DNA of 42,966 nucleotides from a virus: IMG/VR virus record IMGVR_UViG_3300045988_093752; one strand, 5' to 3'. Under the pieces are notes generated by a model. It was not told where the DNA came from and made no database searches. It worked only from the letters and a program-made list of their open reading frames with translations. Positions within the stretch are counted from its first letter, which is position 1. Each line of letters starts with the position of its first letter. Made by a program: the position numbers and the translations under genes. Below, piece after piece: positions 478 through 26,943 of the stretch.

Positions 478-1335
478 CTATTCAATCTCTGTCAATGGAC
501 CGGCTTTAACCCATACACCATTGATTCTGACGGTATCAGTTTGTAAATTAACCGCATCAACGCGTACACGATCAACATATACTACAGCATCCGTTGTATG
601 TAATACTTGGTCATTGTATCCATCTGAACCAGGAACCTTTGATACCATTGAGCATGGAAACCATCCACCTAATTGTTCTAGGTAGCAACATAAATCATCG
701 TTGATTTTCTTTAAGCCGACATTGCCAATTTTCATTTTGATTGAAGTTACCCAAGAACCTACATGAAGAATCTGATCAATAGCTTCTTTTGGTGCAGGCG
801 CAGGTGTACTTGGTACTGGCTTACCATCAAGTTTAGCATTTACTTCTTGAGCTAACTGATTCATTTTGCTATGTAAATAAGGCCCTGGACAAGATGTAGC
901 TGCGAACATTCTATGTTCTGTTAAGCTACCATTCGCATTACCAGTATAGCTTAATCTGAATCCGTATCGTTTACATACATCAACACATAGATTTACCAAT
1001 GCATTCCATGCTTTATCTGATACAGTCCAATTTGGAGCACAAGTTTCATTTGCAACCTCTACAGTAATAGCTTGACAATCGTTATAGTAATTCGATGAAG
1101 TCCATGCACGATTCTCTTCGTCAACATTCGCAACAATAGTACCATCTGAACCAATACAATAGTTAGCACTAGCCATTCGTCCACTTACTTGGAATGATTG
1201 AGCACATCTTTCTGCGGTCCATTGACAAGCCATGTGATGTACTGTAATTTTACAAACTTTAAAGCCGCCACGACCACGAGTGTAGTTGCTAGCAATTGCA
1301 GGAATATATTTATTCGCTAATTTAGAATATGACAT
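478..1335 (-). CDS. Endolysin: N-acetylmuramoyl-L-alanine amidase (Amidase_2/PGRP type) with C-terminal cell-wall-binding region
   Basis: Motifs KITVHHMA, SANYCIGSDG, AWTSSNYYND and AITVEVANE are typical of family-2 amidases. Last gene of the late operon, next to the holin. Confidence 0.85.
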   Translation of the reverse strand: MSYSKLANKYIPAIASNYTRGRGGFKVCKITVHHMACQWTAERCAQSFQVSGRMASANYCIGSDGTIVANVDEENRAWTSSNYYNDCQAITVEVANETCAPNWTVSDKAWNALVNLCVDVCKRYGFRLSYTGNANGSLTEHRMFAATSCPGPYLHSKMNQLAQEVNAKLDGKPVPSTPAPAPKEAIDQILHVGSWVTSIKMKIGNVGLKKINDDLCCYLEQLGGWFPCSMVSKVPGSDGYNDQVLHTTDAVVYVDRVRVDAVNLQTDTVRINGVWVKAGPLTEIE

Positions 1336-3308: not shown

Positions 3309-3330
3309 CCATATACCAATAGATGTAAAT

Positions 3331-3343
3331 GTATGTCCTTTGA
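3331..3343 (+). repeat. Putative crossover site 1: GTATGTCCTTTGA
   Basis: Matches the reverse complement of 4186-4198 at 11/13 positions and 3618-3630 at 10/13. Contains the ATG that opens cassette 1. Confidence 0.7.
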
Positions 3344-3617
3344 TACTTACACTGTAGGAGGTGAGTACCGGCATAAACTGACAATTGATGAATTACCATC
3401 TCATGCCCATAAGCCTCACGATTGGGATGTCATCACTGCTCAAGGTGGTAATACCGGATATTACAACATGACATATCTAAGTGATCGAACCGGAGTATTT
3501 AATCCTTTCACTTATGATTATGACAAAGATAGATATGGTTCATATGTCGGTAATAATGAGCCTCACTACAATGTACCTCCATACGTTGTCACATACTTTT
3601 GGCGTAGAATCGCATAG
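3333..3617 (+). CDS. Silent alternative tail-fibre C-terminal cassette 1 (tail-collar-type tip)
   Basis: MSFDTYTVGGEYRHKLTIDELPSHAHKP...PHYNVPPYVVTYFWRRIA parallels the last 94 aa of the fibre. No Shine-Dalgarno upstream; opposite strand to the fibre. Confidence 0.75.
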   Translation: MSFDTYTVGGEYRHKLTIDELPSHAHKPHDWDVITAQGGNTGYYNMTYLSDRTGVFNPFTYDYDKDRYGSYVGNNEPHYNVPPYVVTYFWRRIA

Positions 3618-3630
3618 GTATGTCATTTAC
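3618..3630 (+). repeat. Putative crossover site 2: GTATGTCATTTAC
   Basis: 12/13 match to the reverse complement of 4186-4198. Contains the ATG that opens cassette 2. Confidence 0.7.
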
Positions 3631-3919
3631 AACCTTTGGAGCAGGTGGCGAGTACAATCACAAATTGGACTGTTACGAGATGCCAAACCACTCACATAAC
3701 GAATATGCAATGATTGAAGGATATAGCGAATGGGATAGCTTTACCCCTATTCCCTATTCAATGTTGTTTAATTGGGGAAAAGGAGAATATCGTGACAGTG
3801 GAACATATCATGCTGCTAGAGTACCGTTAAACTCTGTCACTTCAGATGAAGGAGGAAGCCGAAGCCACAACAACATTCAACCTTATATCGTTGTTTATTT
3901 CTGGAGAAGAATTAACTAA
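3620..3919 (+). CDS. Silent alternative tail-fibre C-terminal cassette 2 (tail-collar-type tip)
   Basis: MSFTTFGAGGEYNHKLDCYEMPNHSHNE...SHNNIQPYIVVYFWRRIN. No Shine-Dalgarno. Its stop overlaps the fibre stop convergently (8-bp overlap, 3912-3919). Confidence 0.75.
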   Translation: MSFTTFGAGGEYNHKLDCYEMPNHSHNEYAMIEGYSEWDSFTPIPYSMLFNWGKGEYRDSGTYHAARVPLNSVTSDEGGSRSHNNIQPYIVVYFWRRIN

Positions 3920-5786
3920 TACGTTTCCAAAAATATACAGTAATGTATGGTTGTATATTATTATGCGATTTCCCACTTCCAACGTAGCCGGTTGGTTGTG
4001 GAACTGTAGACGAGCGCCCCCACGTTAAATTTGGTATTTTATATCCACCTTCATTTTTGTCTGTAAACGAACCGATTTCTCTTGTACTTCCATTGCCCAA
4101 GAAATATAAAGCTTCGGTATGATTGTGTTTTGGCATTTCAGCAATTTCTAAACTATGTACATATTCGCCACCATTAGAATTAGACGTAAAGGACATACTT
4201 GTACTACCATCATTTCCGGTCCCTTCACCAACCAAAGTTCGACCTTGCCCAAAGCGCTCCCAAGTGCCTCCTAAGAAGTTACCTGGATTGTTGTTGCCAT
4301 ATGTAATATAAACTGCACCAACTGGGAATATCTTATTCAAGAACACAGGAGCTACAATATCGCCTAATATAGTTAACGTGTCTTTTTGATTAGCATCTTG
4401 ACCGAAGAAAGTTAATGATCGTCCGTCTTTTCCAAAGTTAATTAAAGTGTAAGTTGGAGTTACAGTAAATATATTCCATGAATAATCATTCATGAATTTA
4501 TCCTTAACACCGAACGCAACCTCATAAGTAGCCGTTGTTGAAGTAAATAAATTACCTGCCTTGTAGTCTTGTTCAAGAGTATAGTTGTTATCCCATGAGT
4601 TTATTTTCGTCCACGAACTAGCACCACTTACTCGATATTGAATATAGAATGATGTAACATTCTTACCACTCAAACTTGTAAAGCCAACTTTGAAGTGTAA
4701 CAACGCATATGTTCCACTTGCTTCATCAATCACATAACTAGAATTAGCACGTTTAGCACTGATGTTGGTCATGCTTGGACTAGAATACGGAACTACTGCA
4801 ACCGAACCACTTTTAGAAGCAGTTCTACCACGTGAGTCTGTAACTGTTGTTGTATAGTTGATTGTTCCACTTGCATAGATTGTTGAAGTGGTAAAGTTGC
4901 TACCAATGTAATCTGCCGAATTGAACCGAGTTGATATAGACGAGATACTTGAACCTTGACTACCACTAGCACTAATTGCAAACTTTAATGCCGATTGACT
5001 CTGTACGATTTGTCCAATTCCTGCACAAATTGAATTTGTATCTGAAATTGAGATTGTACCAATACTAGGAACAACACCACTTCTAACTTTGATAGTCGCA
5101 TTTACCGACTTAGAACCAACGGATGTTGAACCACTGAATGTTTCTAAAGTAAATGTTGCGATACCACTTGTTGAGTTTGGTAAGTTCTTTTCCCAATCTG
5201 TAGGAATGGTATAAGAAAAGCTAGGGGATGTTGTTCCACTAGCTATTGTTCCTAAATATGTCGTTGTTCCGTTCCATGTTACATAAACTTTATGCGAGAA
5301 GTTACTTGATGCACTTGTACCACTGATTGTGATTGTATTACCACAATCTAAACTTGGCTTATTTATTGATGGTGTTGTTGCTCTTGGTATAGTTGTTAAA
5401 TTAACCGTTCCACTACAACTACCACTTCGAGGTGAGTAATATTGCGTGTTGCTACAACTAAATGATGCACTAACACTGATTGATTTAGAACCATCTGCAT
5501 TATGTGTAACTGTTATGTAACCATCCTTTACACCTAAAGTTTGTCCTTTCCCACAAGTAAGTGTGAAGTCCTTGTCAAGAACTGTTGTTCCATTTACAAC
5601 AACTTTGAAATGTTGCGGAACACTATTAAATGAATGATATTGTGTGTTAGAACGAATGCCAACCCACCAATAAACACGAGAAGTATTGTTTTCGATTGAG
5701 TAAGAATCTTCCCAACATTTTAGTATAAGAGAATATTTATTCTCATCACCTGCCGTGATTCGTATACTGCCACTAAATTCTGCCAT
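3912..5786 (-). CDS. Tail fibre / receptor-binding protein with C-terminal phage-tail-collar-type domain
   Basis: 624 aa, Ser/Thr/Gly-rich beta-type body. C-terminus PVGAVYITYG...GGTWERFGQGRTLVG...GGEYVHSLEIAEMPKHNHTE...SHNNIQPYITVYFWKRIS fits the collar (MdpB-like) pattern. Directly follows Tal. Confidence 0.8.
   Translation of the reverse strand: MAEFSGSIRITAGDENKYSLILKCWEDSYSIENNTSRVYWWVGIRSNTQYHSFNSVPQHFKVVVNGTTVLDKDFTLTCGKGQTLGVKDGYITVTHNADGSKSISVSASFSCSNTQYYSPRSGSCSGTVNLTTIPRATTPSINKPSLDCGNTITISGTSASSNFSHKVYVTWNGTTTYLGTIASGTTSPSFSYTIPTDWEKNLPNSTSGIATFTLETFSGSTSVGSKSVNATIKVRSGVVPSIGTISISDTNSICAGIGQIVQSQSALKFAISASGSQGSSISSISTRFNSADYIGSNFTTSTIYASGTINYTTTVTDSRGRTASKSGSVAVVPYSSPSMTNISAKRANSSYVIDEASGTYALLHFKVGFTSLSGKNVTSFYIQYRVSGASSWTKINSWDNNYTLEQDYKAGNLFTSTTATYEVAFGVKDKFMNDYSWNIFTVTPTYTLINFGKDGRSLTFFGQDANQKDTLTILGDIVAPVFLNKIFPVGAVYITYGNNNPGNFLGGTWERFGQGRTLVGEGTGNDGSTSMSFTSNSNGGEYVHSLEIAEMPKHNHTEALYFLGNGSTREIGSFTDKNEGGYKIPNLTWGRSSTVPQPTGYVGSGKSHNNIQPYITVYFWKRIS
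4186..4198 (-). repeat. Putative crossover site in the fibre gene: GTATGTCCTTTAC on the minus strand
   Basis: Plus strand reads gtaaaggacatac. Covers the fibre codons S-M-S-F. Inverted relative to the sites at 3331 and 3618. Confidence 0.7.
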
Positions 5787-14184: not shown

Positions 14185-14918
14185 TTATCCCTCCTTTTCT
14201 GATTTTTCATTTATGAAACGTGCCAGGTCACTGAATTTTCCTGTTGTTTTCTTATTAACACCTAAAACTTTGTTAACTTCTTTTTCATAATCAAAGAACT
14301 TATTAAATTTCGTATAAACCATCTTTTGTTTCTTACCAACTCGTTTTTTAGCTCGTGCTTTCATATTCAAATATGCTTGTAAGTGCAGATAATACTGGTC
14401 ATCTACCATTTGTAGCTCTTTAGACTTCATTAAAAGACGATATTCATAAGGTGTAACATTATTAACTTGCTCAATGCTTTTGAAGCCTAGATAGCGAAAA
14501 CAACTGATCACAACACGTTCATACATTTCATTGAATGTTTCTTCTATTTCTTCGTCTCTGTTACCTGCGTGCTCAATAGTGGTTTCACTTCTTTTTTGCA
14601 TGCATTCGCTTGAGATAAAAAATTGATTACATCCTCAAAAACTTTGTCGATATCTTCAACATCTTCTAAATAGCTTTCTACCTGTGCTTTCTTTAATCTA
14701 GGTGATTGTCCGATATTCATATAGAAAATACAGTCTGCCAATGCATCAATATCGCCATCAATGATGCTTGCAACCATGTATTTCAATCCGACTTCTTTTT
14801 TTGTACCTGTATTCGGTACATCAATTGATAACTTTTTGTTTACTTCGTGTAAGAATCCAAACCCTGCTACTAGTTGGTAGATTTCTCCATTTACTTCAAT
14901 TTCCATGTATTTGCTCAT
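14185..14918 (-). CDS. Tail assembly chaperone G-T fusion made by -1 programmed frameshift
   Basis: ORFs 14544-14918 and 14185-14601 overlap, and the downstream frame is -1 relative to the upstream one. An A6 run (gcAAAAAAg) lies in the overlap. Canonical position between major tail and tape measure. Confidence 0.6.
14544..14918 (-). CDS. Tail assembly chaperone (G-like, unshifted product)
   Basis: 124 aa acidic protein immediately downstream of the major tail protein gene. Confidence 0.7.
   Translation of the reverse strand: MSKYMEIEVNGEIYQLVAGFGFLHEVNKKLSIDVPNTGTKKEVGLKYMVASIIDGDIDALADCIFYMNIGQSPRLKKAQVESYLEDVEDIDKVFEDVINFLSQANACKKEVKPLLSTQVTETKK
14592..14598 (-). other. Candidate -1 slippery sequence (AAAAAA in tgc-aaa-aaa-gaa)
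   Basis: Plus strand reads cttttttg. After a -1 slip the reading continues aga-agt-gaa, the frame of ORF 14185-14601. Confidence 0.5.
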
Positions 14919-14981: not shown

Positions 14982-15521
14982 TCATTCTTCTTTTTTAACA
15001 TCTTTATAAACATAAGATGCAACTTCCTGTTGTTCTTTAGTTACTGTTGCATATCCATCTGCACCATTTCCATTTGCACCGAATGTTAATTCGATTTCAA
15101 CTGAGCCTTCCGCACCTGAGGAGATAGAGCATTCTGTCAAATATCCTTGGTAATATTTAGATTTGAACTTGCCGGCATTTGTTTCAGTTCCTTCTTCTGC
15201 TAGGTTTACTTCCCAACATTCAACTAATTTGTCTTCCAACATAGCTTTTTCTAATTTGCCGATAATTGCATCACCTTTTGACAAAATAGATGTTGATGTG
15301 ATTTCAATTTCTGCCACTGATGGAGTACGAATACTTCCATCTTTTGTAGCAGTTGTATCTGCATCTTTAGAAATATTACGCTCGTTTTCTGTAGGGAAAG
15401 CAATTGCACTTGCATCTTCTTTTTTTGAATCTTCTGCGACTCTGAAAAGGTAAATTAATTGTTTACCTTGCACTGCTTCAACTACTGAATCTGCGAACAT
15501 TTGTAAATCGAACTTATTCAT
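14982..15521 (-). CDS. Major tail protein
   Basis: 179 aa, AGGAGG RBS, position after the connector genes. N-terminus MNKFDLQMFADS carries the LQMFA leader. Confidence 0.75.
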   Translation of the reverse strand: MNKFDLQMFADSVVEAVQGKQLIYLFRVAEDSKKEDASAIAFPTENERNISKDADTTATKDGSIRTPSVAEIEITSTSILSKGDAIIGKLEKAMLEDKLVECWEVNLAEEGTETNAGKFKSKYYQGYLTECSISSGAEGSVEIELTFGANGNGADGYATVTKEQQEVASYVYKDVKKEE

Positions 15522-15931
15522 TATTTCTTTCCTCCTGTAATTCTAAAATCCAACTCAAGAACTCCATGCATCAATGTTGTTCCTGTACTTGTATCTGACA
15601 ATATCCGTTGGTTGATATTGCTAATCTGAAAAGCAAAATTGCTTGTTCTGTTAATCTGTCGAGCTACATTTTTCACTATCATCATGATTTCCGACAATTC
15701 TCCACGTTTCCTTGGGTTGTTGTGCCAAACATCCACAACTTGCGTGATATTGCCTAAAACCATTGTTTTGTTTCCGTAATCATCGACTAGTTGACTTGAT
15801 CCTATGTATACAAACGGATAGGGTGTCCCTTCGTCCGGTAGACACGAGTCATAAACCTTAATTTTTTTGCTTTTCAATGTTTTTTCTAATTGCACTTTTA
15901 GCGCAATAAATAACTCCTGCTGTGAATCCAT
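15521..15931 (-). CDS. Tail completion / tail terminator-like protein (by position)
   Basis: 136 aa, translationally coupled (ATG overlaps the next gene), between the gp10-like protein and the major tail protein. Confidence 0.5.
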   Translation of the reverse strand: MDSQQELFIALKVQLEKTLKSKKIKVYDSCLPDEGTPYPFVYIGSSQLVDDYGNKTMVLGNITQVVDVWHNNPRKRGELSEIMMIVKNVARQINRTSNFAFQISNINQRILSDTSTGTTLMHGVLELDFRITGGKK

Positions 15932-15939
15932 TGCATCAC

Positions 15940-16287
15940 CTACTTACATAGCTTTTTCATATCGGATTTGAAGATTGGCACTTGTCGATGATATGCAGGG
16001 CCAACGAAAGGTTGCGCATCCATGAAACGTGTACCATGTTCAACATAAGGTGCATATTCTGTTGTCGGTCCTTCCGCATATTCAAAACCACCTTTGCGTA
16101 TTTCACCTCTGATACTTCTTTTGGTTGTCCCTGTGGAATATCCTTTTGTGAATACTGCATTTTTACCTGTGTTCCTTTGCATTTCAGTGCCATTTTGTTT
16201 AATTACTGTTTTCACATCATTAAGTGTGCAGTTTTCCTTTAACTTCTTCTGAAGCTTTTCCAATCCCTTTATTTCGATTTTTGCCAT
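15940..16287 (-). CDS. HK97 gp10-family head-tail joining protein
   Basis: MAKIEIKGLEKLQKKLKEN...YAPYVEHGT...PFVGPA resembles the gp10 family; position fits. Confidence 0.6.
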   Translation of the reverse strand: MAKIEIKGLEKLQKKLKENCTLNDVKTVIKQNGTEMQRNTGKNAVFTKGYSTGTTKRSIRGEIRKGGFEYAEGPTTEYAPYVEHGTRFMDAQPFVGPAYHRQVPIFKSDMKKLCK

Positions 16288-16589
16288 TAGTACACCTCCG
16301 ACAAAACAAAAGACTCCTTTGTTCGGAGTCTTCGTGAATAATCTGCTTTGTATTTTTTTGTACCGATTCTAATGAAATCAAAAGGCTTGTCATAGATGTT
16401 TTGAATATGGCAAGTCAAGCTACCTTGTCTAATTTGTCCGTATATTTGCATCATCGTTTGTGTTTGTGTATCCATTACAGATGCCATTACCATATCTTCT
16501 ACAATCGAATCATCATCATAATTGCCTGTTTGCTCATTGTAAGAACCTTGTACCATTCTTTGAAAATAAATAGGCTTGTCATACCTCAT
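16287..16589 (-). CDS. Head closure / head-tail adaptor protein
   Basis: 100 aa, coupled to its neighbours; order is connector, closure, gp10-like. Confidence 0.5.
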   Translation of the reverse strand: MRYDKPIYFQRMVQGSYNEQTGNYDDDSIVEDMVMASVMDTQTQTMMQIYGQIRQGSLTCHIQNIYDKPFDFIRIGTKKYKADYSRRLRTKESFVLSEVY

Positions 16590-16915
16590 AGAAATCTAAC
16601 CCTTCCTTTATTTTGATTGGCTTGCTCATCTCTCCAGGATTGAATCTCAGAAGAGAAAGAAGAGAAGTCATCATCATTAAATGACATTGACTCCCCTTCT
16701 ACTGAATGTGTTTGAACACCTTCAGAACCAATCCTATTAAAGCGTTTGATGGACACTTCAGTAATGATATATTCTAGTTCATCCGGTATGATTTTTACGC
16801 TTAGAAGCGCTTTAAGTCGACCTTCCGTAAGTCTTACAATGGTCTCTAGCTTTTCATCATCAGTTTGCAAGCCAAGAAGCAGTTTTACATCATTTAATAC
16901 GGTTGTTGTCGACAT
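16586..16915 (-). CDS. gp6-like head-tail connector protein
   Basis: VLNDVKLLLGLQTDDEKLETIVRL is typical of the Phage_connect_1 N-terminus. Directly follows the capsid gene. Confidence 0.6.
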   Translation of the reverse strand: MSTTTVLNDVKLLLGLQTDDEKLETIVRLTEGRLKALLSVKIIPDELEYIITEVSIKRFNRIGSEGVQTHSVEGESMSFNDDDFSSFSSEIQSWRDEQANQNKGRVRFL

Positions 16916-16925
16916 CTTTAATCAC

Positions 16926-18131
16926 CTATGCCTTTAAATCAACAACTACATCGCCTTTTGATACTGCTTTGTAGTTTCTGTCACATTCTACAACAGTGCA
17001 GTGATTAGATTCTGCTGCTTTGATATCTGCTCCTGCTTCGAAGTTCTTCCATGATTTAACATCTGTGCCATATGCCACTGTTTCTTCAGAAGCTCCTACC
17101 TTATATTTGAATTTGTTGTTCATAGATTGTAACTGTTCATCAACTGCTACCTTAGTAGTTCCTGTTTCTTCACCTTTAGAAGCTGTTAATGTTAAATTAC
17201 GCAATGTCTGAGTGTCAGAACCACCTACTGCAAAGTGTGCAATTGCATCTTGGTATTCACACATTAAACGTAATCCCATGATAGCGAACATATCAGAAAT
17301 AGCACGATCATAGTTTCCTTCTACATGGAATCCTAAGAAGCCAGTAGTACTGTCAGTAGTATATGAAAGTCCTGCTTTAACAAATTCAGAATCGCTTGGA
17401 TCTACGTAATATGCAATGATGTTGTTCATTGGAGTGGCTACTACTGTTTTTTCTGCTACTCGGTCTGTTAAGAATACAATATCTGCTCCTAAGAAGCTCT
17501 TAATGTATGTTAAACCGAATGCAGTCTGCATAGATACATTAGCTTCTCCTAAATAGCGGTAAGCATCCAATGTGTTGACGAATACAGCAATACCAGTAGT
17601 ATTTCGTTTCATCTTCTGGAATTTGTGTTTAACATTACCGATTGCCATCGCAATTGCCATTTGCCAAGTTGCTTCATGTCCTACTAAGCTACCTGAGTTC
17701 AACTGTTTATATAAGCGATCAGTGATGTTATCTTGCAAATCAATACGGAATTGTTCATCTGTATCAGATACTGCAGCTTCATATCCTTTCTCTGCAATTG
17801 CTTCAATTGGAACGGCTTTACGGAATTTCTCGATTTGAATTGTATCAAAAACTTCTTCTTCAACTTTATATTCGCTTAATGGAATTGATTCACCTTCTGC
17901 TACATGTCCATCTTTTAATGTTCCTGTTACTTTCTTTGTTTTTAAAACAGAACCATTTGCTTTACGGATTGGACGAATGATTCCTAATACATCCAATAAA
18001 GCCTGGATATTCTTTCCAAAACTAGTAACAAAATCAATTTCGTGTGCTCTAACTTGGATGTTGCCTGTTCCTGTTAATCCTTCAGGTGCTGCGAACATTT
18101 GCAAGTTCATACCTTTATAAATTTTTTTCAT
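16926..18131 (-). CDS. Major capsid protein
   Basis: 401 aa after the scaffold gene, AAGGAG RBS. N-terminal leader MKKIYKGMNLQMFAAPEG. Confidence 0.75.
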   Translation of the reverse strand: MKKIYKGMNLQMFAAPEGLTGTGNIQVRAHEIDFVTSFGKNIQALLDVLGIIRPIRKANGSVLKTKKVTGTLKDGHVAEGESIPLSEYKVEEEVFDTIQIEKFRKAVPIEAIAEKGYEAAVSDTDEQFRIDLQDNITDRLYKQLNSGSLVGHEATWQMAIAMAIGNVKHKFQKMKRNTTGIAVFVNTLDAYRYLGEANVSMQTAFGLTYIKSFLGADIVFLTDRVAEKTVVATPMNNIIAYYVDPSDSEFVKAGLSYTTDSTTGFLGFHVEGNYDRAISDMFAIMGLRLMCEYQDAIAHFAVGGSDTQTLRNLTLTASKGEETGTTKVAVDEQLQSMNNKFKYKVGASEETVAYGTDVKSWKNFEAGADIKAAESNHCTVVECDRNYKAVSKGDVVVDLKA

Positions 18132-18152
18132 ATGTTAGTTCTCCTTTTTCTA

Positions 18153-18773
18153 TTACTGGAATAAATCCATATTCTCCGCAATCATGCGTTGTCTTTCCAT
18201 TGGATCAGTGATATTCATGATTGATTCACGAGTTACCCCCTTGTTTGAACCACCACGTTTAGGACCGTTGCCTTTCAGTTTTTCTTTAACTGCTTTTTCT
18301 ACTTCAGATTCAAACATCTTAACAAATGCATCAACCGCTTTCTTTGTTTTATCTGCATCTTTATTAACTAGAACAGATAAAAGACCATCTCCAACGTTAA
18401 TATCATGCTCTGCGCACATTTTACGTGCTTCATTTGTCATTTCTGCGATTGCGTTTTTTGCTTTCAATTCATCTAGCTCTTTTTGCACCTTGTCACGTTC
18501 TGCTTCTGCTCGTTCTTGTGCATTCATTTCAGCTAAGCGCTCAGCTTCTTTTTTTTCTTTTTCTTGATCGGCTTTCCAACGTGCAAATCTTTTGTCAAGA
18601 ATCGCATTCAAATCTTTATCTGAATATTTCTTTTCAGATGATTTGTCTTTTTCTTGGTTGTCTTGTCCCTCAGTTGATTGAGTGTTTTCTGTTCCTGTAC
18701 TCTCATTTTCACCGGAAGTTTCATCTGCAAAAAGTTGTAAGCAAAAAGGTAGTCTGTCATTGAATTTTTTCAT
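18153..18773 (-). CDS. Scaffolding protein
   Basis: Glu/Lys-rich coiled coil. Start reassigned to ATG 18773 (AGGAGG 8 nt upstream), giving MKKFNDRLPFCLQLFADETSG. Confidence 0.7.
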   Translation of the reverse strand: MKKFNDRLPFCLQLFADETSGENESTGTENTQSTEGQDNQEKDKSSEKKYSDKDLNAILDKRFARWKADQEKEKKEAERLAEMNAQERAEAERDKVQKELDELKAKNAIAEMTNEARKMCAEHDINVGDGLLSVLVNKDADKTKKAVDAFVKMFESEVEKAVKEKLKGNGPKRGGSNKGVTRESIMNITDPMERQRMIAENMDLFQ

Positions 18774-18862
18774 ATTTATATTTCCTCCTATTTTTCTGAC
18801 TTTGCTTGTCAATTTCCCATATCTTTTTTAGGCTTAAATGCTTGGCCTATAACCCATACAGT

Positions 18863-19030
18863 TTAACGACGTAAATGCTTGGTCTTGTTTGGTAGTGTGG
18901 ATATGTAGGCTTTATAAGTCTTGGCTTTTCCACAAAAAATGCACCGTTGATTACGTACTTCAACGATGCATTCTAGCCATTGATCAAAATAAACCTTTTC
19001 GACACGCTCCAAATATTTGTGATTACACAT
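18863..19030 (-). CDS. Small Cys-containing protein (55 aa), hypothetical
   Basis: Not in the ORF track. MCNHKYLERVEKVYFDQWLECIVEVRNQRCIFCGKAKTYKAYISTLPNKTKHLRR. Start overlaps the end of the Prp-like gene by 8 nt; fills an otherwise empty gap. Confidence 0.35.
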   Translation of the reverse strand: MCNHKYLERVEKVYFDQWLECIVEVRNQRCIFCGKAKTYKAYISTLPNKTKHLRR

Positions 19031-19331
19031 CTCTCAGTTCCACACATTCAGGATATGCTTCTTCTGTACTTTTGCATCCAATTCTGAAGAAATTAATTGC
19101 TAATTCTCCAGCAAGGTCCAAACCCGAGATATACAACGTCTTGCTATCTTTATCAGGTTCGTAATATCTACAAAGTGCGTCGGATGTTTCGTCGATTGAA
19201 TTGGCCAATGTCAAAAATAGTACTGAGATAGCGCTGCAGACGATATCCTTTCCTATCGGAGCGTAACGAGCATGGCCATGTACTTCAATCAGGCAATCAC
19301 TTTCTGTCTGTTTAATCTTAATTTTTATCAC
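19023..19331 (-). CDS. Prp-like cysteine protease (DUF464 / ribosomal-processing protease family)
   Basis: MIKIKIKQTESDCLIEVHGHARYAPIGKDIVCSAISVL contains the GHA His and the DIVC(S/A)A Cys of the Prp dyad. 102 aa, the family-typical size. Confidence 0.7.
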   Translation of the reverse strand: MIKIKIKQTESDCLIEVHGHARYAPIGKDIVCSAISVLFLTLANSIDETSDALCRYYEPDKDSKTLYISGLDLAGELAINFFRIGCKSTEEAYPECVELRDV

Positions 19332-19385: not shown

Positions 19386-19718
19386 TTAGAATCCTGGAAT
19401 AATGTCTTTGACATCCTTTAGAGTATTCTTAACTTTTTGAAGCATAGAATTTTCAAATAAATATTCAATTCCCTTCGGAGTGATAATCATATTTGTTAAA
19501 TCACCCCAAATAATGCCATCTTTTGTTCTTTGAGGATTTATACCTTCAATGTATCCATCCTTTAATAATCCAATAATTATATATTGCCAATAATTTTCCG
19601 GTATAGAATATTCATCATTTGTTAAAAATCTTCTATCTGGTTTTTCACCTTTTTTCAAGCAATCATATAAGTACTTAAGTACCTGATATACAATTACAAA
19701 ATAATCATCTCTTGCCAC
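19386..19718 (-). CDS. YjcQ-family winged-helix protein
   Basis: FVIVYQVLKYLYDCLKKG...IIIGLLKDGYIEGI resembles YjcQ. GTG start with AGGAGG 5 nt upstream. Confidence 0.55.
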   Translation of the reverse strand: MARDDYFVIVYQVLKYLYDCLKKGEKPDRRFLTNDEYSIPENYWQYIIIGLLKDGYIEGINPQRTKDGIIWGDLTNMIITPKGIEYLFENSMLQKVKNTLKDVKDIIPGF

Positions 19719-19905: not shown

Positions 19906-21585
19906 TTACCTCCTTAATTTAATTTCTACTAATCGTTTGATTTCTTTTGATATTTCATGAGCGTTATCACCATTTATAAAACAATCACTAAAAGCTTCTG
20001 CCATAGTTTCTGAATAACTTTCGGATGCATATCCTGAAATATCTTCAATCAATACATTTAATCTTTTCCCTTTAATTATACCTTTTGCTTGGAGATTATT
20101 AAAGGCTTCTAAGACTACTTTTCCAGATTCATTACAGTTGTTCCATGCATTTTCCTTTTGCAATGTATTTTTATAATTAATATTCCTATTCAAAAATACA
20201 AATTCTAAAACGTGTGCAGCTTCATGCACCATATCGCTTTCAATTGTTGTCCCCTTCATCCAATACCCTATATTTACCTGCTCTTTTATAAGGTTTCTAT
20301 AGGCGTCGGGGTCTTTAAAAAGCTTAGGATTTAAGCTAATGTCATTTTTACTTGGTCTAAACACCATTGCTCCATTATCTGAAGTTGCTATACGCTTTAC
20401 ATATTTATTGATTTCCGGATATTGATTTAGCATGTTTCTTAAGCTTTTAAGTGATCTTGAAACACTTGAGTAATTAAGCTCTTTTACAGACTCGTCTATC
20501 TCAATATTAAAATCATTCTTCCATTCTGTGGATAAATCGGCATAACGCTTATCGTTTGATGCTTCCGTGAGTTTACTTTTTACCTTTGACATTAAAAAGC
20601 CTTTGCTTTTATCTGATTGCCTTTCTTTCCACTCATCAAACCTTAAACTATGTTCTCCATTTGCTAGGCCATCTAGCCATTTTTCATACTCCTTACAATC
20701 TGAATATGGTGCCGTTGCACAGTGACAATTTGGATGCATAGGTGGAGCGTTTTCTCCTATTTCCATGTCTTTAAGCTTGAATGTTTTGCCATCCATTTCT
20801 TTACATAATGGACACACGTCTTTTAATCCGCACGCAATATATTCATACTCATCTATTCCGTTTGATTCGTAAGATTCTGCCTGTGCTTGTGTTTGAACTC
20901 GCGCAATTTCTGTTCGCAACAATCTTTCTGCATTGCATCTTGATACATCGAATTTCTTTCGTATCTGAGGGATAAACTCTCTTGGATTCTTACCTTGAAT
21001 CAATGCACTGGATAGAACACTGGATAAACTGTTTTTTAGCTGGTCTTGATTTACCCAAATTCGTTCTGAAAAGGTTGCGTTCTTAAAAGATGAATCTGCT
21101 ACTGTTTTGGCCATCTTCGCATTGTCAATCACTGTATCACCTAAGATAGAAGCATTACGTTTGAGTTCTTCTAAATAGGCTCCTTCCAGTTTATCACCAG
21201 TATACGACTTCAATTCGTCATGGCCTGCCACAAGTTCTAATCCAATGTTTGCTTTTAAAAGCTCCAATCGGTTGACTTTCATTGCTAAGTTATAAAGTCT
21301 CATCTGTTCATTGGCTTCATCTGAAAAGTTCTTTTCCTTTACATACTTCTTAGCTTTTCTTTGATATGCTTGGATATCTATGTTAGAAACTCTCTTTTTG
21401 GCTTCTGCCATAGTGATGTTTTCTTTATTGGCATAGCGAGTAAAAAAGGATTCGATTTCCTTTTCAACCGAATCCATCATGTTTGCATATATTTCTTGTA
21501 TCTCATCCGCATATTGCTTTTCATCTTTTAAGCGTTTCTTTTTCCATTCAAGCTCACGATCTCGCCAATATGTTTTACTGCTCAT
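19906..21585 (-). CDS. Minor head protein (SPP1 gp7 / Mu F family) fused to a C-terminal HExxH metallopeptidase-like domain
   Basis: MuF core RLLRTEIARVQTQAQ...CPLCKEMDGKTF...PPMHPNCHCATAP. The C-terminal ~260 aa contain MVHEAAHVLEF and a downstream ETMAEAFSD. Start at 21585 or 21603 is uncertain. Confidence 0.75.
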   Translation of the reverse strand: MSSKTYWRDRELEWKKKRLKDEKQYADEIQEIYANMMDSVEKEIESFFTRYANKENITMAEAKKRVSNIDIQAYQRKAKKYVKEKNFSDEANEQMRLYNLAMKVNRLELLKANIGLELVAGHDELKSYTGDKLEGAYLEELKRNASILGDTVIDNAKMAKTVADSSFKNATFSERIWVNQDQLKNSLSSVLSSALIQGKNPREFIPQIRKKFDVSRCNAERLLRTEIARVQTQAQAESYESNGIDEYEYIACGLKDVCPLCKEMDGKTFKLKDMEIGENAPPMHPNCHCATAPYSDCKEYEKWLDGLANGEHSLRFDEWKERQSDKSKGFLMSKVKSKLTEASNDKRYADLSTEWKNDFNIEIDESVKELNYSSVSRSLKSLRNMLNQYPEINKYVKRIATSDNGAMVFRPSKNDISLNPKLFKDPDAYRNLIKEQVNIGYWMKGTTIESDMVHEAAHVLEFVFLNRNINYKNTLQKENAWNNCNESGKVVLEAFNNLQAKGIIKGKRLNVLIEDISGYASESYSETMAEAFSDCFINGDNAHEISKEIKRLVEIKLRR

Positions 21586-22933
21586 CGTTTTGTGAATCCT
21601 CATTATTTTGGAAGATTCGGTTTTCAGTTTCTACCATATCATTCTCATCTTCCTTTTTGATACGTTCCATTTCGGCATTCGTATCTTCAACTGCCGAGAT
21701 AAACGACAATTGAGTTTCGTGAGACACGATTCCTGATAATTGTGCAGCAGTCTGTGCTTCTTCTAATAAGTTTGCAGGATAATTTTGTGTAAACTTGTAT
21801 TCAACCTCAAGCCAGTCATTCTCAGAACGATGTGTGATCGCATTACTAAATAAGACTCGATATCTACGATTCATTCCAGATGTGAACTTACGCTCTTTCG
21901 CTTTTGCTAGGTTTGACATAGAAAGAAGTTTATATCTCAATGCAATACCTGAAGTCGTTCCAAAGTTCTCATCATTGATATTGGCCACCATTGAGTTTTG
22001 GAAGATTAAACGTTCTAATCTGTTAATTAGATTTTCCTGTGTTGCATCTGCATTAGGTTTTGACATGAAATCAACTACAATTCCATCACCACTTCCATCC
22101 ATTGACTCAAAGTTAATTGTTCGATTATCTCGAATGTGTACCAAATCTGACTCTTCTAATTTAGGACCTAAGATTTTTAAATAGGCATCTGCAAAGTAAT
22201 CAACATCATTTGCTTTTTCTGACATTGCCTTGTTATAGGCATTAATCAAACTGTATGTTGATTCAAAAATAGACATACGTTCTTCATTTTCAATAAATTC
22301 AGTGGCCGGAATATCATTGAATCCATGCTCTACGCCATTAAATACATGAAGACCGCCTTTATCATTGAACTCATACTTATATGTTTTGTCATAGATATAC
22401 CCACGCATAACCTCGTCTACAATCTGATATGTTACGAAATATCTAGGTTTCTGCACTGTTGATTCATCATAAACCATGAAGCCTTCTCTTGGATCTAAAT
22501 AAGTGATTCCTAAATTTCCATAATCATCATTGAAATACAATTCATATCCTTTTCCAAAAACACTACAAATCTTAGATAGTTCTGCATTGTTGTCGTCCTG
22601 ATCATTGTATTTATCTAGCAAGTTGATATAATCATCAATTTCTTTGTTCTTAGAAGATACTTTGATTGGAACCCCAATAAAAAAACCGTTGAATGTGTCA
22701 ACAATGTATTTCGCAAAGTTGACCACAACACGGTTATCGGGTTTATAGGTTTCTTTATTGGCTTGATGCAAGATTGGATAATCTCCAATATAGGCATCAT
22801 AAAGCTTTTTATATCTGCTTGTTATTAATGTTTTATGACTTGTTATCAATCCATTCAACACTTCAATGTTAAGGATGTCTTTATCGTCAGATAGCTTAAA
22901 TATCGTATCCGGTTTAATAATGTATGCGTTCAT
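21575..22933 (-). CDS. Portal protein (SPP1 gp6-like)
   Basis: 452 aa between terL and the MuF gene, with an acidic C-terminal tail. Confidence 0.8.
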   Translation of the reverse strand: MNAYIIKPDTIFKLSDDKDILNIEVLNGLITSHKTLITSRYKKLYDAYIGDYPILHQANKETYKPDNRVVVNFAKYIVDTFNGFFIGVPIKVSSKNKEIDDYINLLDKYNDQDDNNAELSKICSVFGKGYELYFNDDYGNLGITYLDPREGFMVYDESTVQKPRYFVTYQIVDEVMRGYIYDKTYKYEFNDKGGLHVFNGVEHGFNDIPATEFIENEERMSIFESTYSLINAYNKAMSEKANDVDYFADAYLKILGPKLEESDLVHIRDNRTINFESMDGSGDGIVVDFMSKPNADATQENLINRLERLIFQNSMVANINDENFGTTSGIALRYKLLSMSNLAKAKERKFTSGMNRRYRVLFSNAITHRSENDWLEVEYKFTQNYPANLLEEAQTAAQLSGIVSHETQLSFISAVEDTNAEMERIKKEDENDMVETENRIFQNNEDSQNDEQ

Positions 22934-23688
22934 TAAATACCTCCTTTAAACGTCCTTACTTTAACTCGGCCAAATGCATATTTTTCTACTGCATATCGCA
23001 TTGCATCCATCAAGTGGTTGAAATCATCAATTGGTCGATTTATTTTGTTTCCTAATCTATCTTCATCCCATGTATAGTTTCCTATTTCGGTTATGAAATT
23101 AACACATCTAGGATGAATGATAATTTCAAAATCTTGAATATATTGAATCCCATGCATAATGGAATCTTTTCCTTTTTGTGACTTTTCAACACGAAGGCCA
23201 TACCCTCTAAGCTCATCAATCGACTTAGGCTCTGCACAGTCTGCCGTGTAAGACTTCTTTTGATAATGTGAGCTTTCGATCTCCTCATAAAGCCTTTTGT
23301 TGGAAAGGCCTTTTTTATACACCTCATCCCAAACATAAAGTTTTTTATGTTCTGTATCAATGAAACCTATAAAAACTGCAGCAGGGTCATTCGTATACCC
23401 AAAGTCAATACCATCTACAGAATCACAGTTAACGACTTGATCTAGTGTATATTCTTCCTCTTTCCAATTCTCATAAACCAATCCATCAACAATACCCCAA
23501 TTTCCTAATCCGGCCACCTGATATCGTCTAGGATTGTTCTTCTTCATATTTTCGAACAACCTTAAATCGGCATCATCCAACCATTCATTACACTTATAAT
23601 TGGTTGTGATAGCCAATATGTCAGGATCATTCTCTGCATCAAAGAATCTTTTTTTAAGCCAATGGTGTTCATTCCCATTTGTGTTCAT
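22933..23688 (-). CDS. terL: Terminase large subunit, exon 2 (C-terminal nuclease half)
   Basis: NEHHWLKKRFF...ITTNYKCNEWL...YQVAGLGNWG...GIDFGYTNDPAA...DCAEPKSIDEL...DDFNHLMDAMRYA matches PBSX-type terminases. The ATG at 23688 is probably not a real start. Confidence 0.8.
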   Translation of the reverse strand: MNTNGNEHHWLKKRFFDAENDPDILAITTNYKCNEWLDDADLRLFENMKKNNPRRYQVAGLGNWGIVDGLVYENWKEEEYTLDQVVNCDSVDGIDFGYTNDPAAVFIGFIDTEHKKLYVWDEVYKKGLSNKRLYEEIESSHYQKKSYTADCAEPKSIDELRGYGLRVEKSQKGKDSIMHGIQYIQDFEIIIHPRCVNFITEIGNYTWDEDRLGNKINRPIDDFNHLMDAMRYAVEKYAFGRVKVRTFKGGI

Positions 23689-23689
23689 G

Positions 23690-24595
23690 TAAGGTCGTTA
23701 ATCTTACACCGCTTTCGCAGCTCATTGTTACCAATGAGATCAGACTATATCACCATCTTGAATTTTCAAGATACCCCCCATTTCCGCTCACTTGAGCGTA
23801 CTCCATTAAAAAAACCGCATTAATTGCGGTTAGGATAGTCGTTAAACTTTTTTTATTTTCATTCCGTTAATAACACATTCGTTTGATTTAGATAATTTAT
23901 TTATTAATTTAGTTGATAAATTATATCTCTTTTGTAATTGATATCCGCTTATAAATACTTCACCTGTTGTCTCGTTTATATACTTTCCAGTTAGTTCGAT
24001 TTCTATAAGCTCTCCAGATTCAACCATTTTATAAACCTTATGCCTTGTAACACCTAAACAATCAGCAGCTTCTCTCATTGATGAAAAACATTGTTTTCCA
24101 TCTGGTGTAGAAACAGGCTTTCTTATTGAATTGTTTAGATCTTCTTTTTGTTCACCAGTCCATACATTTGCTATGGTCTTTTTGTGCTTTTCTGTATAAG
24201 CGATTTCTTTATCTATTGCATCTTTTTTTGTGCTTGCAGTATCAACGATTGCTATTTCAACATCTTTGAACAATTCAAGATTGTTTGCAATCATGTATTT
24301 ATGTATTGGCTGTTGACGTGTTTTATCTCTGAAGCCTCTTCTATGCTCATTGATACGAGCACCGATTGTCCGTGTGCTTCCTACATAAATAATCTTTTGT
24401 GTTTTAATTTCTCGAAATAGATATATGTAATAAAATGGTGTTTGTTTCATATCTATATTTTACCATTATATTTCATTCCAAGCAACAAACGAAAATAAAA
24501 CTTAGCTTTTGATTGCCCTCTCTTTCGAGTAGGGTTTTCCAAAAATTAAAGGGGTTTTCATATAAAATCACTTTTATATGCCGCAAAATCTACGG
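23690..24595 (-). mobile_element. Group I intron (boundaries approximate) interrupting terL and carrying a homing endonuclease ORF
   Basis: ~900-nt insert between the two terminase halves. Its non-coding flanks contain four GNRA-capped hairpins: 24559-24580 (GTGA loop), 24516-24534 (GAAA), 23721-23738 (GTAA), 23709-23720 (GAAA). Confidence 0.65.
23842..24450 (-). CDS. GIY-YIG homing endonuclease with C-terminal HTH DNA-binding domain
   Basis: FYYIYLFREIKTQKIIYVGSTRTIGARINEHRRG gives the GIY...YIG...R...E motif order. The C-terminus LGVTRHKVYKMVESGEL is HTH-like. Weak RBS, as is usual for intron ORFs. Confidence 0.8.
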   Translation of the reverse strand: MKQTPFYYIYLFREIKTQKIIYVGSTRTIGARINEHRRGFRDKTRQQPIHKYMIANNLELFKDVEIAIVDTASTKKDAIDKEIAYTEKHKKTIANVWTGEQKEDLNNSIRKPVSTPDGKQCFSSMREAADCLGVTRHKVYKMVESGELIEIELTGKYINETTGEVFISGYQLQKRYNLSTKLINKLSKSNECVINGMKIKKV

Positions 24596-25105
24596 GTTGA
24601 ATGTAATCATCCACTGTTTCCAAAGATGTGGTGGTAACTCACCACGAATTGACTCATCTAGGGTATCAAAGTCTTTTTCACTTGTTATCTCATAGGCTTC
24701 TTCAAGCCATGCCCAACACAAATATCCATACTCAACAGTAATAGATGTTACTTTTAATGGATCGTCGAGTCCTCTAAAGAGAATCTTTTGCCCAGTTGGA
24801 AGATATGTTGCCTCCAAAGGCGAATATTTAAATTCCCATAAGTGTTCAACCTCTAGTCTCCTTGTTGCCCATTTTAAATCCGTGAAACACGAATCTTTAA
24901 GCGTTCGATAAGTCTTACGCACAACTAATGTATTCGATTTATCGTATTTCATCATGTTGTATATGATGCGTAATGCAGTTGTTTTTGACTTCTTAGAAGC
25001 ACGAGAACCTTTGCATGCAGCATAACGTCCTCTGAAATTCCAATAGGATTTATATCCTTTCCCTACTATTTTAGGTAACTTAATAGTTTTAGTCTTCAAG
25101 ATCAT
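24590..25105 (-). CDS. terL: Terminase large subunit, exon 1 (N-terminal ATPase half)
   Basis: Walker A-like ACKGSRASKKSKT, then LFRGLDDP and WLEEAYE (Walker B-like), ending ...WMITFNP followed by an in-frame stop at the intron. Overlaps the terS end. Confidence 0.8.
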   Translation of the reverse strand: MILKTKTIKLPKIVGKGYKSYWNFRGRYAACKGSRASKKSKTTALRIIYNMMKYDKSNTLVVRKTYRTLKDSCFTDLKWATRRLEVEHLWEFKYSPLEATYLPTGQKILFRGLDDPLKVTSITVEYGYLCWAWLEEAYEITSEKDFDTLDESIRGELPPHLWKQWMITFNP

Positions 25106-25586
25106 CCTCTCCTTCAAATTTAGGGACTACGATTTCTGCTTGAACTTTGTCTGTAAACAGTGAATATCTTTTTCCAAGTAATTCCGCAGCTTTATTTGCA
25201 TCAGAAAGCTTTGCAGGAATCTCAACGATTTGAGGAACTTCTTCTTTGACCGTTTTCTTTCTTGGTTTTCCATCTCCTGTATCAACATACTCTGAATGTT
25301 CTTTTGTCACTGTGACAACAACAGATTCTTTCATTTCTCGTCGCATTACTTTTGTGAGGTATTCCATGACTTCTTGAACATCTGCTATCTTTCCGGAACT
25401 GACTTTTTCAAGTTGTTCATCAATATAATCTTTGACCTTAGCATTTCTTAGCAATTTAGCAGCACACACTGCAGCGGAACTATCCTTTTTAACATTTGGA
25501 TATACTGCTTTATATGCCCTTGTTGCATTCAGATCAATCAAATACTCGTCAACAAATAGTTTCTGCTTTTCTGTCAGATTAGCCAT
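25089..25586 (-). CDS. terS: Terminase small subunit
   Basis: LTEKQKLFVDEYLIDLNATRAYKAVYPNVK...AKLLRNAKVKDYI is the classic Terminase_2 N-terminus. Start set to ATG 25586 (GAGGAGG upstream). Confidence 0.85.
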   Translation of the reverse strand: MANLTEKQKLFVDEYLIDLNATRAYKAVYPNVKKDSSAAVCAAKLLRNAKVKDYIDEQLEKVSSGKIADVQEVMEYLTKVMRREMKESVVVTVTKEHSEYVDTGDGKPRKKTVKEEVPQIVEIPAKLSDANKAAELLGKRYSLFTDKVQAEIVVPKFEGEDDLED

Positions 25587-26064: not shown

Positions 26065-26589
26065 CTATTTTTTAAAATTTTCAACTTGTATCTTTGCACA
26101 TTGCCAAGATACTTTACAATTTTTCACGATATCATTTGCACTCATATTTTTTACTAAATCCATAGGAACTAAAAGCTCAGCTGCAAATGTATTTGCTTGC
26201 CATTCCGGGTTTATATAGAACGGAATTTCTTCGTTTACTCTTGCAAAACGAATGTGATTCGCCGTATGGAAAAGGTAATGAAACAATTCATGCGCTAACG
26301 TGAATCTAGATCTCCCGTCTCCATTAATTGCTTTTTCGTAAACGTCTGACCGCACTACCATCTCATGAGTATCAGGATATGTTATAGCGTAATGTCCAGG
26401 TGTGATTTCATCTGGCTCAACAATACTCAGAGAAAATTCTTCATCAATTGTTGGCAACACAACATCAAGAAACTTAACTATCGGAAAACAATATCCCTTA
26501 ATATTGAAAATTTTTCTAAGTCTTTTAGCAATTAATCGAATCTCATTTCTTGACAAACCATCCGCCTGGCACATTGTACTCATAAGCAA
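26065..26589 (-). CDS. ImmA/IrrE-family (M78) zinc metallopeptidase
   Basis: FTLAHELFHYLFH (HExxH) followed by EWQANTFAAELLVP, the typical ImmA/IrrE arrangement. Directly follows an XRE gene. Confidence 0.8.
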   Translation of the reverse strand: MLMSTMCQADGLSRNEIRLIAKRLRKIFNIKGYCFPIVKFLDVVLPTIDEEFSLSIVEPDEITPGHYAITYPDTHEMVVRSDVYEKAINGDGRSRFTLAHELFHYLFHTANHIRFARVNEEIPFYINPEWQANTFAAELLVPMDLVKNMSANDIVKNCKVSWQCAKIQVENFKK

Positions 26590-26943
26590 CTAATCCTCCT
26601 TTAATACTTTTTCAATAGCTTTGATTTGATTCTCTGTTAATGAATCAAACTTTCGAGCAAAAGCATTGGCTAAGCCCGCTAAATCAGCATCTTTCCCAAT
26701 CAGATTTATATTCACGTTCTGTTTAGATAAATCCGCTGCTTTTTCCAGATTTTCTATCTCATTCTGTGAAAGACTGTATAAAGAAGTTAATGAACTAATA
26801 AAAGATTTTGGAATTGCTTTTTTTCCATGCTCAATCGCAGATAAATACGATGATTTCACACCTAAACTATCCGCCATTGTTTTTAATAGTTCTCCTCGAT
26901 CTAAACGAATTTTTCTGACTTCCTTCCCAAACGCTGTAAGCAT
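26590..26943 (-). CDS. XRE-family HTH transcriptional regulator
   Basis: IRLDRGELLKTMADSLGVKSSYLSAIEHGKKAIP is a Cro/CI-type HTH. GGAGG RBS. Confidence 0.8.
   Translation of the reverse strand: MLTAFGKEVRKIRLDRGELLKTMADSLGVKSSYLSAIEHGKKAIPKSFISSLTSLYSLSQNEIENLEKAADLSKQNVNINLIGKDADLAGLANAFARKFDSLTENQIKAIEKVLKED

Follow-up and report, generated by a model that had tools for sequence, protein, structure and literature searches.

A phage-encoded Prp-family cysteine protease and L27-type leaders on the scaffold, capsid and tail tube proteins of a gut siphophage

Firmicutes trim ribosomal protein L27 with a small cysteine protease, Prp. The viral genome IMGVR_UViG_3300045988_093752 from IMG/VR, whose full 42,966 nucleotides are referred to here as the window, belongs to a complete temperate gut siphophage and carries a Prp-family gene within its head module, followed by genes for scaffold, capsid and tail tube proteins that each begin with a short leader of the L27 type. 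The locus raises the question of whether the phage enzyme processes these three virion proteins or whether the leaders are left to the host. Our comparisons indicate that an active phage-encoded Prp probably removes the leaders of the scaffold, capsid and tail tube proteins, and that it probably does so redundantly with host Prp. The genes concerned all lie on the minus strand, and the elements on which the argument depends are as follows.

19331..19023, minus strand: Prp-family cysteine protease, 102 aa, GTG start (Pfam, PHROGs, fold and catalytic residues).
19224..19277, minus strand: catalytic loop and helix start of Prp, G19-H20 ... G27-x-D29-IV-C32 ... S36.
18153..18773, minus strand: scaffolding protein, 206 aa (DUF4355 PF14265, E 2e-30; phrog_172, E 1e-50).
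18729..18773, minus strand: scaffold leader MKKFNDRLPFCLQLF/ADETSG, 15 residues, predicted cut before the Ala at 18728..18726.
16926..18131, minus strand: major capsid protein, 401 aa (phrog_544, E 7e-34).
18093..18131, minus strand: capsid leader MKKIYKGMNLQMF/AAPEG, 13 residues, predicted cut before the Ala at 18092..18090.
14982..15521, minus strand: major tail tube protein, TP901-1 family, 179 aa (Pfam, PHROGs, TIGRFAM).
15495..15521, minus strand: tail tube leader MNKFDLQMF/ADSVVE, 9 residues, predicted cut before the Ala at 15494..15492.

The open reading frame (ORF) for the putative protease starts with a GTG codon 8-9 nt downstream of AAGGGAG, and its translation begins MIKIKIKQTESDCLIEVHGHARYAPIGKDIVCSAISVL. 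An earlier reading of the DNA by letters and ORFs alone (the sequence-only reading) had recognized a Prp/DUF464 signature in this ORF and proposed checking it against the profile hidden Markov model of the family. That search returned Peptidase_Prp (PF04327) with 63.2 bits against a cut-off of 27 (E 2.7e-17) over residues 1-97 of 102, and the ORF also matched phrog_4478, labeled 'peptidase'. An AlphaFold model built from an alignment of 12 homologues reached a pLDDT of 90.3 and displayed the element order E-E-H-E-E-H-E, which is the Prp fold. The 14 best matches of this model in the Protein Data Bank (PDB) by Foldseek were all Prp structures (7kld, 7jvs, 2g0j, 2g0i, 2idl, 4peo, 1s12), the closest being substrate-bound Staphylococcus aureus Prp (7kld/7jvs; TM 0.83, E 1e-8). 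Profile, fold and all catalytic and essential residues thus agree with the signature first noticed.

Residues G19, H20, G27, D29, C32 and S36 correspond to G21, H22, G29, D31, C34 and S38 of S. aureus Prp with a uniform offset of -2. The staphylococcal enzyme is inactivated by G21A, H22A, D31A, C34A/S and S38A, and G29 has been proposed to serve as the second hinge in its flexible loop (PMC9405229). The catalytic His-Cys pair of the phage protein is formed by H20 and C32, which are 12 residues apart, and the six key residues are, Met1 apart, exactly the invariant columns in 43 homologues of 22-45% identity. The loop from G to D spans 11 residues, as in the L27-cleaving Prps including that of S. 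aureus, whereas the Thermotoga Prp has 5. The ORF therefore belongs to the Prp family (MEROPS C108) and has intact catalytic residues.

The phage protein is not a cellular Prp orthologue, since it scores below the cut-offs of all 12 NCBIfam cellular Prp equivalog models (PRK14553 type; best 37.6 bits against 133, with cut-offs of 122-225) and its gene is located in the head module, after a MuF-like gene and before the scaffold gene, rather than between rplU and rpmA. It is also shorter than cellular Prps (102 aa versus a median of 110 aa) and is about equally similar to them (up to 40% identity over 88 aa) and to other phage Prps. The location of this Prp-family gene in a phage head module bears out the earlier proposal that the phage carries its own Prp paralogue.

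The leaders of the three structural proteins end in the L27-type pattern (L/I)-Q-x-F followed by Ala, namely CLQLF/A in the scaffold, NLQMF/A in the capsid and DLQMF/A in the tail tube, at the positions and on the strand that the sequence-only reading had given. The S. aureus Prp-peptide structure recognizes P4 Leu, P3 Gln, P1 Phe and P1' Ala of the substrate (PMC9405229), and the leaders of the window share all four residues. At P2' they have an acidic or small residue (D, A), whereas cellular L27 has His or Ser. Across all six frames of the 43-kb window, the string LQxFA is found three times and no more, in each case at the N terminus of one of the most abundant virion proteins, namely scaffold, capsid and tail tube. 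Amino acid composition predicts 0.0034 matches in the first 30 residues of the 68 genes against the three observed, and 300 block shuffles gave a mean six-frame count of 0.15 and never reached three. Relaxed versions of the motif were found at no other gene N terminus in the window. Canonical Shine-Dalgarno sequences precede the upstream Met of each leader and none of the internal Met codons, placing each motif copy 6-12 residues past a Shine-Dalgarno-preceded Met. The true start of the scaffold gene is the ATG at 18773, with AGGAGG 8 nt upstream, and not the TTG at 18812 that opens the longer ORF.

The tail tube protein is identified by Phage_tail_2 (PF06199, 55 bits), phrog_238 (E 1e-50) and TIGR02126 (86.9 bits against a cut-off of 37), and its Pfam and TIGRFAM domains begin at residue 15-16, past the leader. 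Residues 1-18 are disordered in its AlphaFold model (pLDDT <50), and the nearest solved tubes, phage NF5 gp11 (43% identity) and 80alpha gp53, are both leaderless. The earlier suggestion that this phage extends the processed set to its major tail protein stands insofar as the leader is there, but the feature is not special to this phage, as becomes clear from its relatives below. As a separate observation on the capsid protein, residues 319-395 (16926-17177, minus strand) match an S-layer SbsC-like Ig domain (PF18316, E 1.5e-11), as in the related loci L173-L175, and this domain may be a built-in decoration domain.

The arrangement is widely shared. A Prp with 83-98% identity to that of the window is encoded on 80 IMG/VR contigs, in which scaffold, capsid and tube proteins all retain the leader motif. 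This holds even for a sub-lineage in which these three proteins share only 29%, 30% and 45% identity, respectively, with those of the window. Conservation at L, Q, F and A is 99-100% among these close relatives, compared with 42-87% for the positions just past the cut, and the core LQLF/A of the scaffold leader is invariant in 78 of 79 relatives and LQMF/A of the capsid leader in 79 of 79. At greater distance, at least 565 IMG/VR viral contigs encode a Prp relative in a profile-based scan, and 5049 clusters at 50% identity match the family profile at E <= 1e-3. Clustering the Prps of 168 loci at 70% identity and removing one cellular cluster left 18 phage lineages, 17 of them evaluable: the leader was present on scaffold, capsid and tail tube in 12, on scaffold and capsid only in 4 and on the capsid only in 1. 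In all lineages the Prp gene precedes the scaffold gene by one or two genes and is thus fixed in the head-assembly module, ahead of its putative substrates, in at least 18 lineages. The third leader-bearing protein was the tail tube in every case tested, belonging to either the Phage_tail_2 or the lambda-like Phage_tail_3 family.

Sampling from the tail gave a similar picture. We inspected the 120 best cluster representatives out of 1433 homologues of the tube protein in the collection: the strict leader motif is present in 97, and the variants LQLL/A, LQLC/A, LQLH/A or LQLF/N in several others. Five head modules were reached via four tail proteins, not via Prp, and in all of them a PF04327 gene lies just upstream of a DUF4355 scaffold gene; one of the five has a leaderless tube protein.

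Triple leaders also occur in Erysipelotrichaceae prophages (Dubosiella and Firmicutes bacterium M10-2) and in Dorea phage DO134P1, the nearest isolated relative of the window phage. In the DO134P1 record (L088, OP172779) a Prp ORF unannotated in GenBank (~7300-7780; 88 bits against the Prp profile) fills the gap between the annotated DO134P1_00010 and DO134P1_00011. Brochothrix phage BL3 has the leaders MNLQLF/A, MNLQKF/A and MDLQKF/A, and Oenococcus phage Krappator27 has NLQRF/A on all three proteins. All three isolates share with the window a Prp gene in the head module together with scaffold, capsid and tube leaders, but BL3 and Krappator differ in having a lambda-like tube (Phage_tail_3) and a Prp gene placed before the MuF gene. 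A search of 185,579 representative genomes yielded as near matches only a 297-nt prp fragment and a MuF fragment on a Holdemanella porci contig, and no match to the capsid protein of the window.

The Prp of 'Enterococcus phage Efs 1-1-1' (L085, OR846610, UNVERIFIED_ORG) was considered as a phage gene and dropped from the counts. It sits in a cellular prp-rpmA operon, so the record includes DNA of bacterial origin; the operon serves as a positive control, its L27 reading MLLTMNLQLF/AHKKGG. In a neighbor-joining tree of phage and cellular Prps nearly all cellular Prps group together. With so short a protein and such divergence (27-43% identity throughout), the tree does not separate a single capture of Prp by phages from several. 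The complete GHA...G.DIVC signature also occurs in Prp homologues of Treponema/Spirochaetia metagenome-assembled genomes (L215, L226, L245, L257); in the rough tree these homologues are set apart from the cellular Prps of Firmicutes, and no L27-type leader-bearing gene was found downstream of them.

The position of the cut can be approached through homologues that have no leader. Leaderless tube homologues begin M-AEAIQGKKIVYLYR (M-AEAIQGKK), in register with ...DLQIF/AEAVQGKKL of the leader-bearing forms, and this start at the P1' Ala, seen in aligned sequences, is the strongest indirect evidence for the predicted cut position. Across 41 leaders from 16 lineages, Leu is kept in 40, Gln in 41, Phe in 41 and Ala in 36, encoded by 6, 2, 2 and 4 different codons, respectively. 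The core residues are kept despite several codons, and selection therefore acts on the peptide. The proposal that the leaders fit the Prp recognition site is thus borne out at P4, P3, P1 and P1', which persist across divergent lineages through synonymous codon turnover. The leader is gained and lost on individual proteins.

The remaining leader positions vary in concert within a genome. We compared the seven variable positions P10-P5 and P2 by a permutation test: leaders of the same genome share 2.33 of 7 identities, compared with 1.04 between genomes and 1.11 for orthologous leaders between genomes (p < 2e-4). In lineage L165 the capsid and tube leaders are identical (MKHFDLQLFA), and at P2, Leu, Ile, Arg or Lys occur in place of Met across lineages. 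In lineage L169 (IMGVR_UViG_3300029705_006942), Tyr replaces Phe at P1 of each of the three predicted substrates (LQMY/A, LQMY/A, LQIY/A), whose leaders lie 330-4100 nt downstream of the Prp start. The cellular Prp-L27 operons used for comparison came from Lachnospiraceae and other Clostridia; L27 begins ~350 nt after the Prp start at such loci, and P1 is Phe in all of the more than 60 sampled L27 leaders beside a cellular Prp. The concerted leaders and the P1 Tyr point to adaptation to a genome-specific protease, and they weakly favor the phage enzyme over the host enzyme, the hosts' own L27 lying outside the comparison.

Family membership, catalytic residues, motif position, conservation and co-evolution are direct observations, and from them we infer catalysis, the enzyme acting in vivo and the role of the leader as follows. 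Prp would be expressed together with the late head genes, would recognize leaders ending in L-Q-x-F and would cut after Phe, releasing mature scaffold, capsid and tail tube proteins beginning ADETSG, AAPEG and ADSVVE with the loss of 15, 13 and 9 residues. The leaders mimic the N-terminal extension of host L27, and therefore host Prp probably cuts them too. Late in infection, when ~10^4-10^5 substrate molecules are produced, the phage copy may then provide capacity and host independence. If L27 and the 80alpha scaffold are a guide, the leader would act before cleavage, and it may hold the subunits, along with the tube protein's flexible N-terminal arm, in an assembly-incompetent or chaperoned state until Prp removes it. 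The N-terminal arm of siphophage tubes becomes ordered in the polymer, and a leader on that arm could delay polymerization until it is cut. A further step, which we put forward only tentatively and regard as doubtful, is that Prp and leaders form a self-contained, co-evolving licensing system for head and tail, in which the tube leader would be an inhibitory propeptide against premature polymerization.

Several known systems resemble parts of this arrangement. S. aureus phage 80alpha shares with the window the SPP1-portal and MuF head module with no HK97/ClpP protease, a DUF4355-type scaffold and short leaders ending NLQ(F/H)F/A, which imitate the N-terminal extension of L27 and are cleaved behind Phe. 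Its scaffold (gp46) and capsid (gp47) leaders are cut at the motif by host Prp, and cleavage of both is dispensable although an intact scaffold leader is needed for assembly (PMC5744158). In contrast to the window, which has a Prp gene and a third predicted substrate, 80alpha has no Prp gene and uses the host enzyme, and its tube gp53 is leaderless. S. aureus phage phi13 has a tube protein that starts MIEKLKQAPRFLKLNLQHF/ADTG, a L27-like leader like that of the window, but it has an HK97-type head protease, a leaderless capsid and no Prp gene, and its tube protein (317 aa) is much longer than the 179 aa of the window. Kizziah et al. 2017 gave the phi13 leader a single sentence and also remarked that Prp seems to be linked to large self-assembling complexes, namely ribosomes, procapsids and tails (PMC5744158). 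Enterococcus phage phiEf11 has a related tube protein, no Prp and a leader on the scaffold only. Cellular Prp (YsxB/DUF464) and its L27 extension have in common with the phage system the fold, the His-Cys pair, the accessory residues, the loop length and the motif. The HK97-type (S78/U35) and ClpP-type prohead proteases occupy the same niche between portal and scaffold/capsid and are likewise presumed to cut off N-terminal segments from head proteins. The window protease differs from them in being a 100-aa cysteine protease of unrelated fold and chemistry with no sign of packaging into the prohead, in removing a predicted 9-15 residues rather than a delta domain, and in having predicted substrates that reach to the tail tube.

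Some of these facts weigh against an active and necessary phage Prp. The leaders of 80alpha, phiEf11 (scaffold) and phi13 (tube) occur without a phage Prp, which means that the host enzyme suffices in some hosts at least; the phage might do without its own copy. The leaders may be co-adapted to the host enzyme rather than to the phage enzyme. Most loci were sampled via Prp, which makes its presence in every lineage partly circular, and the catalytic His is replaced by Tyr in one cluster of homologues (P0006). In the literature searched, no cleavage, activity or virion N terminus was reported for any phage-encoded Prp.

The alternative that draws most on these points holds that host Prp does all the cutting and that the phage enzyme, redundant for virion proteins, is kept for another purpose; it might keep L27 maturing and ribosomes assembling while infection proceeds, or have another target. 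The leader motif is indistinguishable from that of cellular L27 (LQ[FL]F/AHKKG), the three phages just named use the motif without a Prp of their own, and the identity between the window Prp and cellular Prps makes cutting of L27 plausible. However, the Prp gene is fixed in the head module directly before its putative substrates, the leaders change in concert and have undergone a P1 Phe-to-Tyr switch absent from the sampled L27, and no further motif-bearing candidate substrate is present in the phage. We consider this alternative improbable, though it has the best claim among those weighed here.

Alternatively, the leaders might be permanent N-terminal assembly signals that are never removed, and the Prp-like protein a non-catalytic chaperone. 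The dispensable cleavage and required intact scaffold leader of 80alpha (PMC5744158) would fit this explanation, as would the proposal that Prp is a chaperone of L27 (PMC9261936). It is nonetheless unlikely, as the invariance of the catalytic and oxyanion-supporting residues in the 43 homologues is unexpected for a pure binder, P1 and P1' are the most conserved leader positions, and leaderless homologues start at P1'.

A different protease seems less likely still. Scans of the ORFs from portal to capsid and of 20 further ORFs revealed no ClpP-, S49- or HK97-type protease, in agreement with the earlier statement that no ClpP- or HK97-type protease is present, and the only other peptidase-like match was an ImmA/IrrE M78 domain at 26589..26065. 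The candidate closest at hand is the MuF-like minor head protein (21603..19906), whose C-terminal extension (~150 aa, 19906-20400, minus strand) contains HEAAH at residue ~459 of 565, a zinc-metallopeptidase-like motif of the HExxH type, and which matches phrog_595 'head maturation protease' with E 8e-71. That match, however, spans the MuF/SPP1-gp7 part (residues 11-410) and not the HExxH part, no Pfam family matches the C-terminal 164 residues, and the motif occurs in only 3 of 15 lineages that have the minor head gene in the fetched DNA, as against leaders in 15 of 15. The C terminus looks like the polymorphic cargo known for MuF proteins, and relatives bear unrelated cargo there, such as PBECR3 or ADP-ribosyltransferase, so that maturation by this extension is very unlikely. 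Chance resemblance or a start-codon artifact is scarcely credible: the motif is only five residues long and the tail and capsid leaders hold an internal Met, but the shuffles, the Shine-Dalgarno positions and the amino acid-level conservation with synonymous variation, including replacement of the P2 Met by Leu, Ile, Arg or Lys, all speak against it.

The late genes of the window run in the order terS, split terL, portal, MuF-like, 52-aa ORF, YjcQ-like, Prp, 55-aa ORF, scaffold and capsid, followed by four connector genes, the tail tube gene, two chaperone genes and the tape measure gene. Features beyond those given above are as follows.

22933..21575, minus strand: SPP1-type portal.
21603..19906, minus strand: MuF/SPP1-gp7-like minor head protein, 565 aa.
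19718..19386, minus strand: YjcQ-like protein, adjoining the 52-aa ORF.
14918..14544 and 14601..14185, minus strand: two tail chaperone genes, followed by the 1027-aa tape measure protein.
1335..478: amidase endolysin.
41755-42834: integrase.

The 55-aa Cys-rich ORF (C..C...CxxC; 18863-19030, minus strand) overlaps the Prp stop codon and precedes the scaffold gene; it matched no family in Pfam or PHROGs and is present in 78 of the 80 close relatives. The terL gene is split on the minus strand into an N-terminal part (25117..24590, Terminase_3 positions 4-137) and a C-terminal part (23688..22933, Terminase_3 positions 139-200 and Terminase_3C). Between them sits a GIY-YIG endonuclease ORF (24450..23842), and Rfam group I intron models match below threshold on its flanks, at 24544..24462 (E 0.012) and 23934..23721 (29.5 bits, E 2.9e-5). 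A group I intron that carries a homing endonuclease is the probable cause of the interruption. A second tyrosine recombinase (297 aa) is encoded on the plus strand within 2415-3919, near the DUF859/Gp10_C tail fiber gene (5786..3912), on which it converges together with two short paralogous ORFs (MSFDTYTVGGEYRHKLTIDELPSHAH and MSFTTFGAGGEYNHKLDCYEMPNHSH) that follow it. This layout suggests a fiber-switching cassette, but an inverted-repeat scan gave no convincing repeats and lent no support to a tail-fiber shufflon near 2415-3919. In the regulatory region, the ImmA/IrrE-type M78 peptidase domain protein adjoins a helix-turn-helix protein (26065-26943, minus strand), and the two are the usual prophage induction pair, unrelated to virion maturation. 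Rrp (SP_1145) of Streptococcus pneumoniae was considered as a Prp and set aside; a 2026 preprint describes it as an Ntn hydrolase.

The literature searched contained nothing on the function of phage-encoded Prp or on tail tube processing, although an earlier mention in the founding Prp papers is possible. In it, phage-encoded Prp is annotation only: 'peptidase' in PHROGs and, for gp4 of Krappator X27, 'putative maturation head protease' (PMC12403621). The window itself is an ordinary member of an abundant group, and its system is an uncharacterized variant of the theme set by 80alpha and host Prp.

What the finding offers is first a matter of scale, namely a large and abundant group of Firmicutes phages with their own Prp, found in viral contigs and Erysipelotrichaceae prophages, most of which tag the tail tube as well. 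The culturable phages BL3, Krappator X27 and DO134P1 provide material for studying leader function, and the leaderless tube homologues and the P1 Phe-to-Tyr lineage offer natural comparisons. For annotation, phage members of the family are candidate morphogenetic proteases, and not the 'ribosomal protein' of the PLgT-1 GenBank record or the blank of DO134P1. If the tentative licensing proposal is true, this would be the first case of a siphophage tail tube matured by proteolysis, and leader specificity would drift with the phage enzyme, as in the P1 Tyr lineage. Prp has been proposed as an antibiotic target. Under the same proposal, a prophage Prp could replace the essential host Prp, because the phage enzyme would recognize the L27 site, and could blunt Prp-targeted antibiotics. 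Prophage Prp paralogues that recognize the same site are a plausible antibiotic bypass, beside the unrelated Rrp of S. pneumoniae.

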